Positions 483 through 29,412 of a DNA stretch of 39,562 bases are shown piece by piece (position 1 is the stretch's first letter; the number at the start of each line of letters is the position of its first letter). Made by a program: the position numbers and the translations under genes. The notes under the pieces were generated by a model, which worked only from the letters and a program-made list of their open reading frames with translations, was not told the origin of the DNA and ran no database searches. Source of the stretch: a virus (lineage: Duplodnaviria > Heunggongvirae > Uroviricota > Caudoviricetes); IMG/VR virus record IMGVR_UViG_2690316243_000006, one strand, 5' to 3'.

Positions 483-1220
483 TCATTCACTCTCTTTCAA
501 ACCAGTTTTAACTGTTTGTGGTTTTGGGTAAGGCTGGACTTTGAATAGCTTTGTGTTAAGGCGTTTTCTGGCTCTCTTGTCCAGAAACCGGATGTAACGA
601 AACTGACGGAATTTATGAACACTGGCTCTGTCGATATTAGCCCGCAGATGTTCACCTCGCTGTCCTCCTCGTTTGATTGCATTCTTGCAAATCTCGTGAT
701 ACCACTCGCCATCAAGTTCATAGAATGTTGTTTCATGACTGCCTACATAATCAAAATTGCTTGCCTGGTACACGACACCAAGACAGCCACAACGCTCATC
801 TGCAAACGACTGAACCCACTGCACCTGCGGATAAAGTTGTCTGATTAGTTTGAGCGCGTAACTGATTGCCCTTGATTCGGAGTTTCTCGGCATACAGTCA
901 TGCAGCCATAACCGGTTAAGCTCCATATATTCGCGGTTCTGCGTGCCAGTTACGACGCGTGCACCATTGTTTGGATTAAGGGCATAACCCCATTGCATTA
1001 CGCCAACCAGCTCCCGTTCTGAAAATATGCCCAGATGAAGGTAGGAATTATTTACGAAACGATGGCTGTAATGTTTATTGACGACGACCAGCCGGGCCAG
1101 CCAGCAACTTATTGTCTCAACCCGTAACTCACGGGAGCCATAACCGACGATATTGTCGTTATAGTGAATAAGTTCAGGCGTGCTGATGATACGGGATGTA
1201 ACTTGCTTTCTGTTCCCCAC
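483..1220 (-). CDS. mom: Mom-like DNA modification protein (start tentative: GTG at 1220 preceded by AGGAAA; the open frame extends to 1415)
   Basis: Position at the phage right end immediately downstream of, and overlapping, a Com-like zinc-finger gene, as in Mu com-mom; assignment is by synteny, not motif recognition. Confidence 0.55.
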
Positions 1221-1374
1221 GACAGGATTTCCTTGTGTATGTGGGGTGCTCTGTGGCGCTCTGAGATGTGATTTGATTGAGGGTTTTACAGCGCGGACAT
1301 TTAACTTCCAGATAACTGAAGCTGGCTCGTGCCAGTAGCTTGTTACAATGTCGGCACCGTATGTTTCGATACAT
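1174..1374 (-). CDS. com: Com-like zinc-finger translational activator of mom
   Basis: [34 protein letters not shown]...[15 protein letters not shown] resembles Mu Com (CxxC...CPRC zinc finger); ATG at 1374 preceded by GGAGG; 3' end overlaps the mom frame. Confidence 0.8.
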
Positions 1375-1520
1375 GGCCGCATAACCTCCTGCTTTGTTGT
1401 TGATATCTTTATCACTCAATCGATCGACAAAAACGATCGATTTGATTTATTTAATTGATACAACAAATAACACGAAATGTCATTAGCGAAAATTTATGAG
1501 TTTGATCACTAATTTTAAAC
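1375..1520 (-). promoter_or_regulatory. Upstream control region of com-mom with three GATC (Dam) sites
   Basis: GATC at 1422-1425, 1435-1438 and 1504-1507 in an AT-rich leader; in Mu, mom transcription is controlled by Dam methylation of upstream GATC sites and by C protein. Exact promoter not resolved. Confidence 0.45.
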
Positions 1521-1630: not shown

Positions 1631-1924
1631 ATGGACAATCATGTAACGACGAGAAATCGAAAAATGATTGAAAATGCGGAAATCTATAATGATTATTTTT
1701 CCGATTATTCAGATGCCTGCAAATACAGTTCGAGTGCGGGAGAGTTCATATGCTTCAACTTTTTTATTAAATCTTATGTTTTTCCTCCACAGCAAGAAGA
1801 TGGAGGTGTGCCACCTCCTGAAATCACTTTGCACCGTATAGCCTCCGTCTCAATGATGGAGCAACAGGCTAATGAGCTGTATAGCATTCTGGGAACGATT
1901 CTACAAAAGCGTGAATCGGACTAA
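1631..1924 (+). CDS. Hypothetical protein (97 aa) in AT-rich cargo, divergent from com-mom
   Basis: ORF with AGAGG upstream of the ATG; no recognisable motif. Confidence 0.4.
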   Translation: MDNHVTTRNRKMIENAEIYNDYFSDYSDACKYSSSAGEFICFNFFIKSYVFPPQQEDGGVPPPEITLHRIASVSMMEQQANELYSILGTILQKRESD

Positions 1925-2091: not shown

Positions 2092-2346
2092 TTACATCAT
2101 GGTACTGTCAGTTCCGGGCTGAGCCGGGTCTGGTTGCTCTGGCTGCGCGTCGGTTTTCGGCTCATTATCAGCATCACTGGCCGCAACTGCTGGCCCAATA
2201 AGTTTTGCCAGCACTTCATCAACGTAAGTGTCGATTTGTGCCTCAAAATCCTTGCGGACCTGCGCTTTCAGCAACTTATTTACTTCACCGGAATACAGTG
2301 CCTGTTTTACCAGGTCTTCAGTGACGGTGCCTTTAATTTCTGGCAT
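2092..2346 (-). CDS. Hypothetical small acidic helical protein (84 aa)
   Basis: Strong RBS AAGGAGGA 7 nt upstream of the ATG; protein-like composition; downstream of the 60-aa membrane protein gene. Confidence 0.5.
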   Translation of the reverse strand: MPEIKGTVTEDLVKQALYSGEVNKLLKAQVRKDFEAQIDTYVDEVLAKLIGPAVAASDADNEPKTDAQPEQPDPAQPGTDSTMM

Positions 2347-2381
2347 GTATATCCTCCTTATGCGGGAATAAAGCCCTGCAA

Positions 2382-2564
2382 TCAGGGCTGGGTCGGGTCT
2401 TTTGGGAGCGGAGTTACCTGCGCTGTTTTACTGAGTTTTTCAGCTGCTGCGTCCTCAATTTTGCGGCGAACATAATTTCTGATGGCCTTATAACCACCAC
2501 TCACCAGATATAACGCACATACTGCCGTGCAGAAATACAATAAAATAAGCTGTAAAAATGTCAT
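2382..2564 (-). CDS. Small single-pass membrane protein (60 aa; true start ATG at 2564, the ORF-track start at 2576 is a TTG)
   Basis: GGGAGGG RBS before the ATG; N-terminal hydrophobic helix LQLILLYFCTAVCALYLV followed by a basic tail. Confidence 0.5.
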   Translation of the reverse strand: MTFLQLILLYFCTAVCALYLVSGGYKAIRNYVRRKIEDAAAEKLSKTAQVTPLPKDPTQP

Positions 2565-2579
2565 TATCCCTCCCAATTA

Positions 2580-2660: not shown

Positions 2661-2701
2661 GCCGCCGGTTTCTTGTTTTCCCTTACCGGCGGCATTTTTT
2701 T
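2661..2701 (+). terminator. Candidate intrinsic terminator on the + strand
   Basis: GCCGCCGGT ... ACCGGCGGC stem (9 bp, 15-nt loop) followed by a run of seven T at 2695-2701; on the minus strand the stem is followed by AAAAAG, so it is not a canonical terminator for the esterase gene. Confidence 0.45.
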
Positions 2702-2708
2702 ATCCTGC

Positions 2709-4763
2709 TTACGCGTTATTCACTTCCACCACGATACTGTCAATCAGTACCGGGTAAGTCGCATTTTTAGTGATATCGGTCACGCGCAACTTGTCTGCCG
2801 TAAACGTGCCGACCGGAGACTGCGACAGCATGAATGGTGTCCCGTCCTTACCATCAATGACCGGCGTCACCTCAATACTGTTGTTACCGGCAAAACGGAA
2901 GCCCAGCGTATGCCATTCGTTATTAAATGCGCCGAATGACCCCAGCTTCGTGTTCTGCGCCGTGTTTCCTTTGTGATACATCACGTTAAGGTCTGTGGCA
3001 TCGCTCTGTACGTAGAACGATGCCAGCAGGTTATGACCGGCATTTCCTTCCAGAGTAACCCCTTGCGGCAGGGCAGAAACCGGCCAGTACAGCGCCAGTG
3101 CGTACTGATTAGCCGTAAGCGCGCCATCGAGTTTAAAACGACAACTGACAAGACCACCTTTACCCAGCAGGTCCGCACCATTACCAGCATCATGCTCAAG
3201 GTACCAGGGGGCTCTTCCTGTTTCCTTGGTCAGTTTCATTGCCTTACCCCCGCTGGCTCCGGCATCATCCACGATTTGAGCCTTGCCACCTCCGGCAGCC
3301 CAACCCTGTGGTGTCAACCGTCCTTCAGACTCAGATGCCCGGTAAGCAAATAGCGTACTCATCGTCGTGGTGTCTGCGGGTGGCGTGGACGGTTTTGATG
3401 GTGTATCAGGTGACGGCTTCTCATCCGGTGGTGTCACGGTCTGCCCGCGCATCAGTTCAGCCGTGCGCCCTGCATGGAGCATAATAGCTGAGGCCAGACG
3501 GTCTGAAATGACGCCCCTGCGTGCCCATGAGCTGAAATGGCTGTCACGCTGTGTCGAAACAAAACTGCCCTGGGTTCGGGATGCTGCACCGTAATACCCG
3601 ACAGCCACAATATCCGGGTCTTCCGCCGGAGCATTCGTTGGCGTGCTCTGTCCATTCTCATCCGTCAGGAACGGTACAAAGAAAATTTTCTGTGCTTCCT
3701 TGCCTTTGTAGCCACCGTATACTGCCTCATATTTATCGGTGCCAGCGTTTTTCCAGTAATACGTGGTATCACCGCAAATCCACGGCACCGTGGTGGCATT
3801 TCCACTCACGCACTGCGCAGCAAGCGGAGCCAGGTCAGTTCTGAACTGCTGAACCATGGCCGTGAATAAACTATTATGCTGCTGGCTTCCTGAGGCAAGG
3901 TCTGCCTCTCCCTGCATCCAGACCACAGCCAGAAGTTTGTTTTTCGGGTTTTTCGCCAGCGCGACTTTGGTGCGGCTTACCAGGTCCTGATACAGAGGTT
4001 TACCGGCCCCCCAGCGTGAAGAATCAGCGGAAGCACCGCTGGCCTCACTGAATGAGCCGTCGGCTCCAGTGGTGAATGCTGACCCGCCACGACAACAGGG
4101 CACCAGAAGTATCCCGGCATTCTGTGGGATATAGGGAAGCAGTTTTTTGGCAATATGCAACCCCTGACCGACAGTCCCGTACTGGCCTTTTGCCAGATCA
4201 GCTTTCGGGTGGTTTATCCCGCTCATATCCTGAACATCATGCAGGCAGTGGTCTGCCGGAATGATGTCGTTGTATGTACACGACGTACCGTTGGGCGTTA
4301 CCGTACTGCGGCGTGCCAGTTGCTTAATGCGTGGGTCCGGGCGGTCAAACGAATCCGGTAACGGCAGCCCCTCGCCGTAGGCCATGCCATTTGACTGACC
4401 CGCGAGAATGACAACAAAGTAATATTCCGGCTCTGAACTGCTGCCATTCGTGCTACCGGAAGGCCCGGCGTTATCCGGTGCATTCCAGTCGGAGGGCGTG
4501 AGCGTTCCGGCCACGTCAGATGTGATTGGAATGATGCCAGTCACGCCTGAACTGGTGATTTCTGCACTGGGATTACCGGATACCGGCATTACCCATAATG
4601 GCTCTTTCGTGCTGAAGCGGATCACGCAGTCTGCGAAGGTGATCCCCCCTTTATTACCCGAAGGGCGGAAAGGGCTTTCAATAAATGCCACCGTGCCACC
4701 GGCAACCTTGACTGAAAACTCTCCGGGCATGGCGGAGAGCATTTTCCACTTGGAGTCTGACAT
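2709..4763 (-). CDS. Sialate O-acetylesterase-like protein (SASA/SGNH esterase domain, Pro/Thr-rich linker, C-terminal lectin-like domain); resembles prophage NanS-p proteins
   Basis: GQSNGMAYGEG and WMQGEADLASG motifs typical of the SASA family; linker TPPDEKPSPDTPSKPSTPPADTT; about 200-aa C-terminal domain; own promoter region after the gin terminator. Confidence 0.7.
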   Translation of the reverse strand: MSDSKWKMLSAMPGEFSVKVAGGTVAFIESPFRPSGNKGGITFADCVIRFSTKEPLWVMPVSGNPSAEITSSGVTGIIPITSDVAGTLTPSDWNAPDNAGPSGSTNGSSSEPEYYFVVILAGQSNGMAYGEGLPLPDSFDRPDPRIKQLARRSTVTPNGTSCTYNDIIPADHCLHDVQDMSGINHPKADLAKGQYGTVGQGLHIAKKLLPYIPQNAGILLVPCCRGGSAFTTGADGSFSEASGASADSSRWGAGKPLYQDLVSRTKVALAKNPKNKLLAVVWMQGEADLASGSQQHNSLFTAMVQQFRTDLAPLAAQCVSGNATTVPWICGDTTYYWKNAGTDKYEAVYGGYKGKEAQKIFFVPFLTDENGQSTPTNAPAEDPDIVAVGYYGAASRTQGSFVSTQRDSHFSSWARRGVISDRLASAIMLHAGRTAELMRGQTVTPPDEKPSPDTPSKPSTPPADTTTMSTLFAYRASESEGRLTPQGWAAGGGKAQIVDDAGASGGKAMKLTKETGRAPWYLEHDAGNGADLLGKGGLVSCRFKLDGALTANQYALALYWPVSALPQGVTLEGNAGHNLLASFYVQSDATDLNVMYHKGNTAQNTKLGSFGAFNNEWHTLGFRFAGNNSIEVTPVIDGKDGTPFMLSQSPVGTFTADKLRVTDITKNATYPVLIDSIVVEVNNA

Positions 4764-4833
4764 CGTCTTTTCTGCCTGTTTCTGAATTAAACAGAGTCAG
4801 AATAGCGACCGCTGAAAAATATGTGTTTTGCGG

Positions 4834-4868
4834 AAATTCAAAAAAGCGTCACGGTACTTTTGGTGACG
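4834..4868 (-). terminator. Intrinsic terminator at the 3' end of gin
   Basis: Minus-strand hairpin CGTCAC/GTGACG (4847-4868, overlapping the gin stop codon) followed by CUUUUUUGAAUUU. Confidence 0.55.
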
Positions 4869-5421
4869 GAGCTGGTGAGGCAGGAAAATAACGATAAAGG
4901 GTGGAAAGGCCAATATCAAATATCAGTGCGATTTGTTTACGGGACTCGCCATTAGCCAGCAAACGGGCGATTTGCTCCCGCTCTTTCTCTGTCAGTTTCT
5001 GAGGTCTGCCGCCATGACGCCCCTGAGCACGGGCAGCAGCAAGACCCGCGCGTGTACGTTCAATAATGAGTTCCCGCTCCATTTCCGCCAGCGCGCCCAT
5101 TATATGGAAAAAGAAACGTCCCATGGGAGTGGATGTATCAATATTGTCCGTAATGCTGCGGAAGTTAACGCCGCGTTGCCGGAGTTCTTCTGTTAAAAGG
5201 ACAAGGTGCTGCATACTGCGTCCAAGGCGATCCAGTTTCCAGACCAGCAGGGTATCCCCTGGCCGGAGTCGCTTTAATGCGCGTTTAAGTCCGGGACGCT
5301 CCCTTGTCTTACCGCTTATTCTGTCTTCGAAAAACAGCTCACATCCTGCACATTCCAGCGCATTTCTTTGTAGCGCCGTATTCTGGTCATTTGTTGACAC
5401 CCTGATATACCCAATCAGCAT
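4849..5421 (-). CDS. gin: Gin/Hin/Pin/Cin-family serine DNA invertase
   Basis: MLIGYIRVSTNDQNTALQRNALE... (catalytic Ser in RVSTNDQ), 190 aa, C-terminal HTH; adjacent to the invertible tail-fibre segment. Confidence 0.9.
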   Translation of the reverse strand: MLIGYIRVSTNDQNTALQRNALECAGCELFFEDRISGKTRERPGLKRALKRLRPGDTLLVWKLDRLGRSMQHLVLLTEELRQRGVNFRSITDNIDTSTPMGRFFFHIMGALAEMERELIIERTRAGLAAARAQGRHGGRPQKLTEKEREQIARLLANGESRKQIALIFDIGLSTLYRYFPASPAPSPKVP

Positions 5422-18684: not shown

Positions 18685-19632
18685 TTACAGATAATCCGCG
18701 ACAACCAGCTCCAGCTTGCCCTTCATCTCGTTAGAGACGGTGGTGTTACCGTCCGCGAACAGCTCGCGCTCCAGCAGCTGCACCGCCTGTTTTTCCAGCG
18801 AGGTGGGGACAACAATATGGGTGGGTTTGATGCCGAGTTTGCGGCCACCGTCAGCCTTAAAGTCACGCATGGCTGACCAGCCGTGCCACAGCGCATCCAG
18901 CGTCAGCGGTGACTGCATCATGTAGGCCATCTGCCAGAAGCCGTAGCCCACATTGCGACGGGCGGAAGCACCGAACACAAACTCGTTATCAGTAAACGCA
19001 CGGCCTTCATCGACTTTTGTCTGGGCAACCAGTTCGGCCTTGCGGCGATCCTGATAAATCAGCGGTTTTACCGCGCGGGAGCAGTCAAGCAGATACCAGG
19101 CCGGGCCGCTGTAATCCGCCTGTGCACCGACAGAGCCGGTTTTTGCCACAAACATATTGCTGACCATCTGTGCATCACCGGAGCCATCCACTTTGGGGTA
19201 AACAGGGTGTTCGGTATCAAAGAAGTTCTGGCCGTCATAGCAGGCCGCATTCAGACCATCACGCAGTGCAGCAAAGACCAGTTCATCCGGTTGTGCCGCC
19301 GCAGCGCGCCCCATCTCCTGGAACAACGGGGAGTAGATGCCAAGATTGTCGTCTTCAAAGTCATCGCGGCTAATGGCAACGGTGCCTTCAAAGGTTTTGT
19401 TCACGATGGCGTAGCCATAGGCTTTCATCTTCTCGATGACGCGGGAGCCGATCCACTCACGGAACTGCGGGAACTGCCCCAGCCAGCCGTAGGTGTTGGA
19501 TTTCGACGTGGACGGTACGGTCATCGCAATTTTCTGGTACTGAGACGGAGCCATGGACATCCCGGCCTGAAAATCAGAACGGTAGCCCGTCATCAGGGCG
19601 GTGATCATCGCCGGTGTGATCGGGGTAGGCAT
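18685..19632 (-). CDS. Major capsid (head) protein (Mu T-like)
   Basis: 315 aa following the protease/scaffold gene; GC hairpin CCGGGC/GCCCGG just after the stop. Confidence 0.8.
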   Translation of the reverse strand: MPTPITPAMITALMTGYRSDFQAGMSMAPSQYQKIAMTVPSTSKSNTYGWLGQFPQFREWIGSRVIEKMKAYGYAIVNKTFEGTVAISRDDFEDDNLGIYSPLFQEMGRAAAAQPDELVFAALRDGLNAACYDGQNFFDTEHPVYPKVDGSGDAQMVSNMFVAKTGSVGAQADYSGPAWYLLDCSRAVKPLIYQDRRKAELVAQTKVDEGRAFTDNEFVFGASARRNVGYGFWQMAYMMQSPLTLDALWHGWSAMRDFKADGGRKLGIKPTHIVVPTSLEKQAVQLLERELFADGNTTVSNEMKGKLELVVADYL

Positions 19633-20756: not shown

Positions 20757-20933
20757 TCCGGCAGCATAAGCCGGTGTTTTTCGGGGCCGGTTTTGCGGGA
20801 CTTCAGAAAGTGCTGACAGGGGAAAAATGAGAAAGGCGCTTCACGCAGATTTTAAAGCCCGTTAAATACAGGTTAGAAAATCACGACACGCGCCTGAAGA
20901 GGGTAAGGTAATGCGTTTGTATACCTTAAACCA
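20757..20933. other. G-I intergenic spacer near the genome centre; candidate strong gyrase site
   Basis: 177-bp non-coding gap about 48 percent of the way along the prophage; in Mu the strong gyrase site lies in this spacer. Positional inference only. Confidence 0.3.
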
Positions 20934-28918: not shown

Positions 28919-28989
28919 TGTTACGCTGTCTCATGGTGTTCTCTGAGTCAGCGTAACCGTGAGGAAAAGGGGGCAGGATTTGCGGAATA

Positions 28990-29412
28990 TCAGAAAAGCC
29001 GGGGCTGCGTGCGCTCCTGATGCAGGCGACGCTGGTTGCGGATAACGGAGTAAATCTGCGTCTCTGACATCTGGTAGTGGCGGCGCAGGGTTTCAATTTT
29101 TTCGCCCTGGCTCCAGCGGGAAAAAATTTCATTATTGCGCAGTTCGGTGAAAAGGGATTCACCGACCGGGAGATAATAACCACGCCCGCCCATGTACCCG
29201 GCCTGTGCGGCTGCAACCTTACGGGCAAGCATTCCCGCCTGAGCAGGTTCAATCCCCTGACGGTGCAGTTCAGCACTGATCACATCAACCAGGTCCCGCA
29301 GCGTGCCGGGCCAGTTCTTTTTCAGCTCATCATCAGGAATATCATCCAGACGGTCAATCAGCGCGTGCAGCTGTTCGCTGTCACCAAACATGCTCATCTG
29401 TGTTTCAGCCAT
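28990..29412 (-). CDS. Mor/C-family transcription activator (likely the late-gene activator by position upstream of lys)
   Basis: 140 aa; C-terminal HTH ...IETLRRHYQMSETQIYSVIRNQRRL resembles Mor/C. Confidence 0.7.
   Translation of the reverse strand: MAETQMSMFGDSEQLHALIDRLDDIPDDELKKNWPGTLRDLVDVISAELHRQGIEPAQAGMLARKVAAAQAGYMGGRGYYLPVGESLFTELRNNEIFSRWSQGEKIETLRRHYQMSETQIYSVIRNQRRLHQERTQPRLF

Follow-up and report, generated by a model that had tools for sequence, protein, structure and literature searches.

The window analysed here is the whole 39,562-nucleotide stretch of IMG/VR virus record IMGVR_UViG_2690316243_000006, a Mu-like prophage that carries, between the DNA invertase gene gin and com, a gene for a protein of 684 amino acids (aa) at positions 2709-4763. 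Judged by its sequence, this gene encodes a NanS-p-type sialate O-acetylesterase, with an SGNH/SASA catalytic domain and a lectin-like domain, closely akin to the enzymes of lambdoid phages from enterohaemorrhagic and Shiga toxin-producing E. coli (EHEC and STEC). Alignment indicates that an unrelated domain of ~95 aa (hereafter the N-domain) stands in place of DUF1737, with which those enzymes begin, and that the exchange point falls exactly at the first linker. The enzymatic body and its companion genes are those of NanS-p; the N-domain in place of DUF1737 and the location in a Mu-like, non-lambdoid phage depart from that family as it has been described. Our best reading, of modest confidence, is that the gene encodes a NanS-p variant, expressed late, whose N-terminal module has been exchanged; the new module may serve as a virion anchor. 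The variant is of value as a test of how general the display of sialate esterases on virions is, and of whether the anchor can be swapped.

The prophage is complete, with genes for MuA, MuB, GemA, a Mor-family activator, the Mu portal, F, I and the major head protein T (18685-19632). Phage Mu has 94 bp between the end of gin (35673) and the start of com (35768); the window has ~3.4 kb there, as described in a first-pass annotation of the sequence, which was also right that the gene is not one of the canonical Mu genes. Among 5426 complete genomes of the host, E. coli, 22 carry the locus at >=99% identity; in strain HH35 a diguanylate cyclase gene is split by the prophage, in keeping with a transposable phage. 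The identical esterase sequence forms a cluster with 599 member sequences, which together with the 22 genomes marks the open reading frame (ORF) as a real conserved gene. Its RefSeq label is 'DUF6645 domain-containing protein'.

The family assignment, first proposed from the motifs GQSN and WMQGEAD, was borne out when checked against Pfam: SASA (PF03629) matches aa 117-312 with a score of 51.3 bits (curated gathering score 24.8), and DUF6645 (PF20350) matches with 226.5 bits (E 7.4e-68). PHROG_143 matches at 1.7e-296, and in the PDB aa 110-428 align with NanS/YjhS (3PT5, E = 1.8e-117) and aa 469-683 with the C-terminal lectin domain of NanS-p (6YP6, E = 7.1e-98); NCBIfam and PADLOC gave no match. 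The same 6YP6 match and a linker that is 53% Pro, Thr and Ser confirm the Pro/Thr-rich linker and lectin-like C-terminal domain noted in the first pass. With the SGNH block definitions of PMC10462455, which include the RxSH His block in NanS, GQSN lies at aa 122-125 (nt 4389-4400, Ser S124), WMQGEAD at aa 282-288 (nt 3900-3920), and RDSH, the NanS-type His block equivalent to SGNH block IV, at aa 406-409 (H409); the GQSN and RDSH blocks are invariant across a 17-sequence alignment. By hand count on the 6YP6 alignment, Y554, Y559, Y584 and F654 align with the four aromatic residues that are proposed to bind sugar in vb_24B_21 (PMC10462455).

The catalytic domain is 84-91% identical to the family that contains the characterised enzymes, and from 65-90% identity to these enzymes we infer a specificity for O-acetylated sialic acids such as neuraminic acid with 5-N- and 9-O-acetyl groups (Neu5,9Ac2). 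Chromosomal NanS (YjhS) has the same variants of the SGNH blocks over the aligned catalytic domain. This product of the nanCMS operon is periplasmic, has a signal peptide and consists of one domain; the protein of the window, unlike it, has extra N- and C-terminal domains and by its sequence lacks a signal peptide, so that its substrate would be reached only via lysis or on a virion. A full-length AlphaFold2 model built with 16 near-identical homologues had a mean pLDDT of 36 and was not used.

The N-terminal module and the phages that carry it

Close homologues of the esterase fall into two classes, a common one of 647-650 aa with DUF1737 and a rare one of 680-691 aa without it. Overall identity to the prophage NanS-p proteins is 82-83%, and from the linker onward, through the catalytic and lectin domains, the two classes are 84-93% identical. 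The DNA of one lambdoid nanS-p is 91.7% identical to window positions 2685-4433, that is, to the ORF minus its N-domain, and homology ends at 4433. Over the first ~95 residues identity to DUF1737-type proteins is 17%, and Pfam DUF1737 (PF08410) matches neither the whole esterase nor aa 1-112, even at E<=0.1. The NanS-p architecture proposed in the first pass is thus right as to close kinship and wrong as to the N-terminus.

Members of the rare class agree at 97-100% over the N-domain and at 81-99.7% and 81-93% over the catalytic and lectin domains; in these last two domains they are as close to DUF1737-type alleles as to other members of their class, and alleles are shared between the classes. 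Given a conserved N-domain and shared body alleles, the enzymatic body is drawn from a single pool that recombines, and the N-terminal module strictly follows the type of phage. Three class-2 phages (L034, L035 and L038) have a lectin-like C-terminus only 40% identical to that of the window and a catalytic domain 64% identical, and here the carbohydrate-binding module appears to have been swapped independently.

The N-domain matches no Pfam family at E<=0.1. An exhaustive HMMER search with it over 1.84 billion representative proteins returned four matches: P0122 and P0123 are fragments of the N-domain esterase family itself, P0125 is a Salmonella enterica fragment, 30% identical, with N-domain, Pro/Thr linker and the start of an esterase (EYYFVIPVAGQSN), and P0126 (7e-4) was judged probably spurious as a relative. 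A word-index homology search with the N-domain recovered only fragments of the same protein, and a scan of species-representative genomes did not find it. AlphaFold2, run on aa 1-112 with five sequences, predicts a six-stranded all-beta core (residues 7-80 with pLDDT 70-83, mean 66), for which a fold search gave generic matches only and no virion-protein match above noise. The predicted fold differs from that of DUF1737, which has one helix and three strands (preprint 10.64898/2026.04.10.717836).

The N-domain was found only fused to the esterase and only in Mu-like prophages, in three classes (two of E. coli, one of Salmonella), always beside tail-fibre/gin genes. The second E. coli class (~62% identity) is in a Mu-like phage inserted into the Stx phages LC727881 and LC727895, with the order gin, esterase, DUF1378, DUF826, com. 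The P0125 locus is likewise a Mu-like prophage, with baseplate, tail fibre, invertible segment, gin and two small ORFs before the esterase. Synteny is invariant over 34 IMG/VR contigs: fibre, fibre-assembly gene, gin where present, esterase, DUF1378, DUF826, a variable slot, com and mom. In eight of them (L010, L011, L013, L015, L018, L023, L024 and L025) gin is deleted down to a 3'-end remnant, the fibre-assembly gene directly precedes the esterase, and the late-promoter-like motif described below is kept. What had looked like a sporadic insertion is therefore a syntenic fixture of a clade of Mu-like prophages. Among the 5426 complete E. coli genomes 32 carry the N-domain, in up to three copies each, versus about 1290 that match the classical nanS-p region. 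Some strains have the prophage at as many as three sites, which is consistent with active transposition.

Nor is the esterase a single cargo gene. In lambdoid prophages the order is Q, tRNA/stx, SASA esterase, DUF1378, DUF826, holin and lysozyme, and the nanS-p region is described likewise in PMC10462455; the insert in the window is the whole nanS-p/DUF1378/DUF826 trio of these prophages, detached from the lysis cassette, together with a separate variable slot. DUF1378 at least was found downstream of the esterase in 30 of the 34 viral-contig loci, and in three of the other four (L010, L015 and L023) the contig ends first. Comparison of window positions 2092-2576 with L039 and L040 has DUF1378 and DUF826 accompanying the esterase in lambdoid and Mu-like phages alike, and in the window no lysis genes lie near them, which suggests that the function of both is tied to the esterase, not to the lysis cassette.

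The variant therefore shares with NanS-p of the EHEC/STEC lambdoid phages (933W L0105/z1466 and phi24B vb_24B_21/gp84, for example) the SASA/SGNH and DUF6645 domains, the Pro/Thr linker and the two downstream genes. It differs in its predicted beta domain in place of DUF1737, in its host element, a transposable Mu-like myovirus, and in its position between tail-fibre/gin and com-mom genes, where lambdoid nanS-p stands between Q/stx and holin, upstream of the lysis cassette. Searches of the literature for a NanS-type or sialate esterase from Mu-like phages turned up no account of one.

A candidate late promoter in the gin-esterase spacer

The gene had been credited with its own promoter region after a gin terminator. 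A consensus scan (terminator loop limit 8 nt) of the 85-bp spacer reported no sigma-70-like promoter and no terminator. A 6-bp hairpin followed by T6, which the loop limit had kept out of the scan, does overlap the gin stop codon, so that a terminator-like element exists; it is weak (-6.9 kcal/mol, z = -1.0). The promoter, in turn, appears to be of another kind, with the architecture of the phage's activator-dependent late promoters.

Alignment of the spacer with that of the ~62% class, at 70-80% nucleotide identity, revealed the conserved block TGAATTnnCGCAAAA. The motif TGANNTNNCGCAAA occurs exactly three times in the window, each time on the transcribed strand: in the spacer, between the Mor/C-family gene and the endolysin gene, and upstream of the head protease/scaffold gene I (Table 1). 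The divergent relative Mu_JNE082796 also has exactly three such sites, at the homologous Plys, PI and esterase positions. Randomised sequences gave a mean of 0.12 matches and never three or more (0/1000); the motif was derived from the esterase site, and the other two sites in each genome are independent of that choice. All six sites of the two phages have CTTT before the motif and a TAnnnT hexamer 22-23 nt after it, so that, with the hexamer taken as the -10, a pseudo-dyad is centred at -42.5 (esterase site) or -43.5. By position weight matrix the sites of the window score 28.8-29.9 bits and the next best 14.5. All 34 related loci examined (34/34) have the motif, at -77 to -81 relative to the ATG.

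In Mu the late promoters, namely Plys, PI, PP and Pmom, carry a -10 hexamer, no -35 element and a 16-bp imperfect dyad at -43.5 for the C dimer (PMC2582627). The sites described here have the same layout, with an imperfect dyad at about -43.5, and two of the three are at the Plys and PI positions; they differ from those of Mu in sequence and in being only three, with none before the tail genes or com. By analogy with Mu, the esterase module is most likely transcribed from an activator-dependent late promoter, and late timing of its expression is probable. The product of the Mor/C-family gene (28990-29412) would switch on all three genes of the module, alongside those for lysis and head proteins, in lytic development, binding as a dimer near -43 of a promoter that has a -10 hexamer and lacks a -35; the esterase would then be made in lytic development and not in the repressed lysogen. 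Late status is documented for NanS-p (PMC8065619), which in lambdoid phages is under the Q-antiterminated pR'; the window promoter would be a Mor/C-type site instead.

Several points weigh against a late-expressed, virion-docked esterase. The pseudo-dyad window was chosen by eye, and the promoter assignment depends on sequence architecture and on analogy of position with Mu. The motif is unlike the Mu C-site (TTAT-N6-ATAA type), sharing only a CCGCA core with Mu Plys and PI, and Mu's own late promoters do not contain TGANNTNNCGCAAA; the motif is thus specific to this phage lineage, and the assignment of the activator rests on analogy. It is missing in the Salmonella relative (L004), and in the window no comparable site precedes the tail genes or com, which leaves the late regulon incompletely explained. 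Weak read-through from gin into the esterase gene is possible, since the hairpin at the gin stop is weak. Finally, no isolated phage in the phage collection carries the esterase.

The part of the window that was scanned for such genes holds a single Mor/C-family gene (28990-29412, minus strand), directly between gemA and the endolysin gene, in contrast to Mu, which has separate mor and C genes with the middle operon between them. The regulatory cascade of this phage may be shortened relative to that of Mu.

Virion anchor, soluble enzyme or lysogen trait

NanS-p enzymes are documented late-gene de-O-acetylases of Neu5,9Ac2 and mucin (PMC8065619). The NanS-p of phi24B (gp84) is reported to be a capsid-decoration protein: its DUF1737 (residues 2-57) would form a hexamer in the pore of central hexons, and cleavage at linkers that contain SSP would release the esterase and lectin domains (preprint 10.64898/2026.04.10.717836). 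The window protein has the same plan, with a small N-terminal module, a Gly/Ser linker with an SSP-like motif (SSSEP), esterase, Pro/Thr linker and lectin domain. It departs from gp84 in its non-homologous module (17% identity), which is predicted to be all-beta. On this model, the N-domain would dock the esterase-lectin unit on the Mu-type particle, the SGNH domain would take O-acetyl groups off sialic acids such as Neu5,9Ac2, and the lectin domain would target the enzyme to glycans. Docking fits because the N-domain is strictly tied to Mu-like phages, adjoins tail-fibre genes and is conserved while the rest of the protein recombines; as an analogy with gp84 we put it forward tentatively, as the likeliest single role of the N-domain but somewhat less likely than its denial. 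More doubtful still is the broader proposal that the N-domain is a new virion-docking module and that unrelated morphotypes, lambdoid podo- and siphoviruses on one side and transposable myoviruses on the other, each acquired a NanS-p-type structural accessory directed at mucus or glycans by anchor swap.

The Mu-like variant thus offers a natural experiment on whether NanS-p are capsid-decoration proteins. If the N-domain is an anchor, selection would have favoured the display of a sialic-acid esterase on virions in phages of unrelated architecture, with a bearing on how temperate coliphages deal with gut mucus, and DUF1378 and DUF826 would be shown to be partners of the esterase, not of the lambdoid lysis genes. 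Should it be no anchor, the phage is simply one more home for a well-known accessory gene.

Among the alternatives the strongest, which we consider unlikely on present evidence while giving it real weight, is a late enzyme that acts in solution, either as a public good released by lysis for sibling lysogens or as an aid to phage diffusion through mucus; DUF1737 would simply have been lost, and the N-domain would serve in oligomerisation or folding, for example, and not as an anchor. A late-type promoter is compatible with this, the active domains of phi24B NanS-p end up soluble anyway once cleaved from their capsid-bound stub, and the fold search linked the N-domain to no virion protein above noise. 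Such a loss does not readily explain why a known capsid anchor was replaced, exactly at a linker, by a different folded domain, why that domain is strictly partitioned by phage type in a protein whose remainder recombines freely, or why it is strongly conserved within the class.

The first-pass annotation preferred a lysogenic-conversion moron, an esterase made by the repressed prophage that opens the O-acetylated sialic acids of mucus to the lysogen as a growth substrate. NanS-p alleles do support growth of EHEC on Neu5,9Ac2 (PMC8065619), and the gene lies outside the canonical Mu set, in a gin-com interval of only 94 bp in Mu itself. Against these, the synteny is fixed over three diverged Mu-like classes where a moron would be sporadic, the G+C content of 53-57% (over 3001-4500) is like that of the phage body, and without a signal peptide the enzyme would need lysis to reach its substrate. 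The gin gene is expressed in Mu lysogens, so that low-level read-through past the weak hairpin could supply some enzyme. The late-type promoter architecture and the lack of a sigma-70-like site in the spacer nevertheless argue against expression in the repressed prophage, and hence against a classical moron, and nanS-p of Stx phages is itself a late, induction-dependent gene (PMC8065619). We regard the moron reading as weakly supported and improbable; a virion-associated protein, which the first pass had offered as its alternative, is now the more plausible of the two.

The part of the region that best fits the usual features of a moron is not the esterase but the variable slot between DUF826 and com. 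Its ORF lies in a stretch of 40% G+C (1460-2060), is preceded by two sigma-70-like sites in the consensus scan (1610-1639 and 1668-1696) and has no match in Pfam, NCBIfam, PHROGs or PADLOC, and related phages have other sequence at this place, for example a 64-aa Cys-rich ORF in Mu_JNE082796.

Esterase tailspikes of other coliphages modify surface glycans for adsorption. The least probable reading is that the N-domain sits in the same way on the baseplate or tail fibres and that the enzyme de-O-acetylates a surface glycan (K1 polysialic acid or O-antigen) for adsorption: the gene does follow the tail-fibre and fibre-assembly genes, directly so where gin is deleted, its lineage-specific N-terminus with exchangeable catalytic and binding parts, including the 40%-identical lectin domains of L034, L035 and L038, is the typical pattern of tail enzymes, aa 211-312 weakly match the 'tail protein' family phrog_25867 (1.2e-6), and O-antigen de-acetylation has been raised in the review literature as a possible NanS-p role (PMC8065619), but the catalytic domain is closest to the sialic-acid-specific NanS, trimeric-fibre and beta-helix features are absent, the sole experimental localisation of a homologue is to the capsid, and lambdoid phages, whose tails are quite different, share these catalytic and lectin alleles.

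Coordinates and neighbouring features

Table 1. Features of the esterase region and of the comparator sites, in window coordinates.
Feature	Position	Strand	Basis or remark
NanS-p-type sialate O-acetylesterase gene (by sequence), 684 aa, variant without DUF1737	2709..4763	-	ORF, Pfam, PDB, PHROG
N-terminal domain, predicted all-beta, no known family, in place of DUF1737	4479..4763	-	aa 1-95
Linker 1, Gly/Ser-rich, contains SSSEP	4434..4478	-	aa 96-110; homology to DUF1737-type NanS-p starts here
NanS/SASA SGNH catalytic domain	3468..4433	-	aa 111-432; 3PT5 alignment, invariant blocks
Linker 2, Pro/Thr/Ser-rich	3360..3467	-	aa 433-468; 53% P/T/S
C-terminal lectin-like jelly-roll domain (DUF6645)	2712..3359	-	aa 469-684, ~215 aa; 6YP6 and DUF6645
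DUF1378 small membrane protein gene	2382..2564	-	second in module; PF07125 1.2e-31; PGAP
DUF826 gene	2092..2346	-	third in module; PF05696 6.4e-16
Variable-slot ORF, 97 aa (PGAP: 86 aa, 1664-1924)	1631-1924	+	opposite strand, convergent to esterase module
gin DNA invertase	4849-5421	-	Resolvase and HTH_7; upstream neighbour of esterase
com	1174..1374	-	Zn_ribbon_Com; downstream boundary of extra region; PGAP coordinates
mom	483-1220		after com; Pfam Mom PF25680
Pseudo-dyad TTTTGAATTTCCGCAAAA, candidate Mor/C-type activator site	4826..4843	-	core motif TGANNTNNCGCAAA at 4827-4840
-10-like hexamer TATTCT	4799..4804	-	22 nt downstream of motif
Second motif copy, between Mor/C-family gene and endolysin gene (Plys position)	28979..28992	-	comparator
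Third motif copy, upstream of head protease/scaffold gene I (PI position)	20792..20805	-	comparator
Weak hairpin CGTCAC-N10-GTGACG + T6, overlapping gin stop codon	4840..4868	-	possible leaky gin terminator
Inverted repeat CTGTTT-N7-AAACAG at predicted transcription start / 5'UTR	4776..4794	-	conserved, unique in window
Strong 10-bp G+C hairpin just after esterase stop	2661..2693		T-run on + strand side; -23.3 kcal/mol, z = -4.63

Two further inverted repeats flank the esterase gene. The CTGTTT-N7-AAACAG repeat is kept between phages that are 70-80% identical here and could be a protein-binding site; an RNA hairpin that sequesters the ribosome-binding site, by analogy with Com and mom, was considered and rejected, since its stability is like that of shuffled sequences (z = -0.18). 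The strong hairpin beyond the stop codon has its T-run on the plus-strand side and would therefore terminate transcripts of the opposite direction, not the esterase transcript.

GATC sites are clustered upstream of com (1420-1460, minus strand; AAATCGATCGTTTTTGTCGATCGATT), in a way that resembles the GATC cluster AAATCGATCGGTAATACAGATCGATT of the Mu mom regulatory region. The cluster in the window is only ~45 nt from the com start and is not followed by a C-type motif; control of com-mom may differ from that in Mu. In Mu_JNE082796 (L002, from LC727881) a C-5 cytosine DNA methyltransferase gene (3171-4223, minus strand; PF00145, 2e-42) follows com at the position of Mom, which suggests that the anti-restriction modification gene under Com control is exchangeable.

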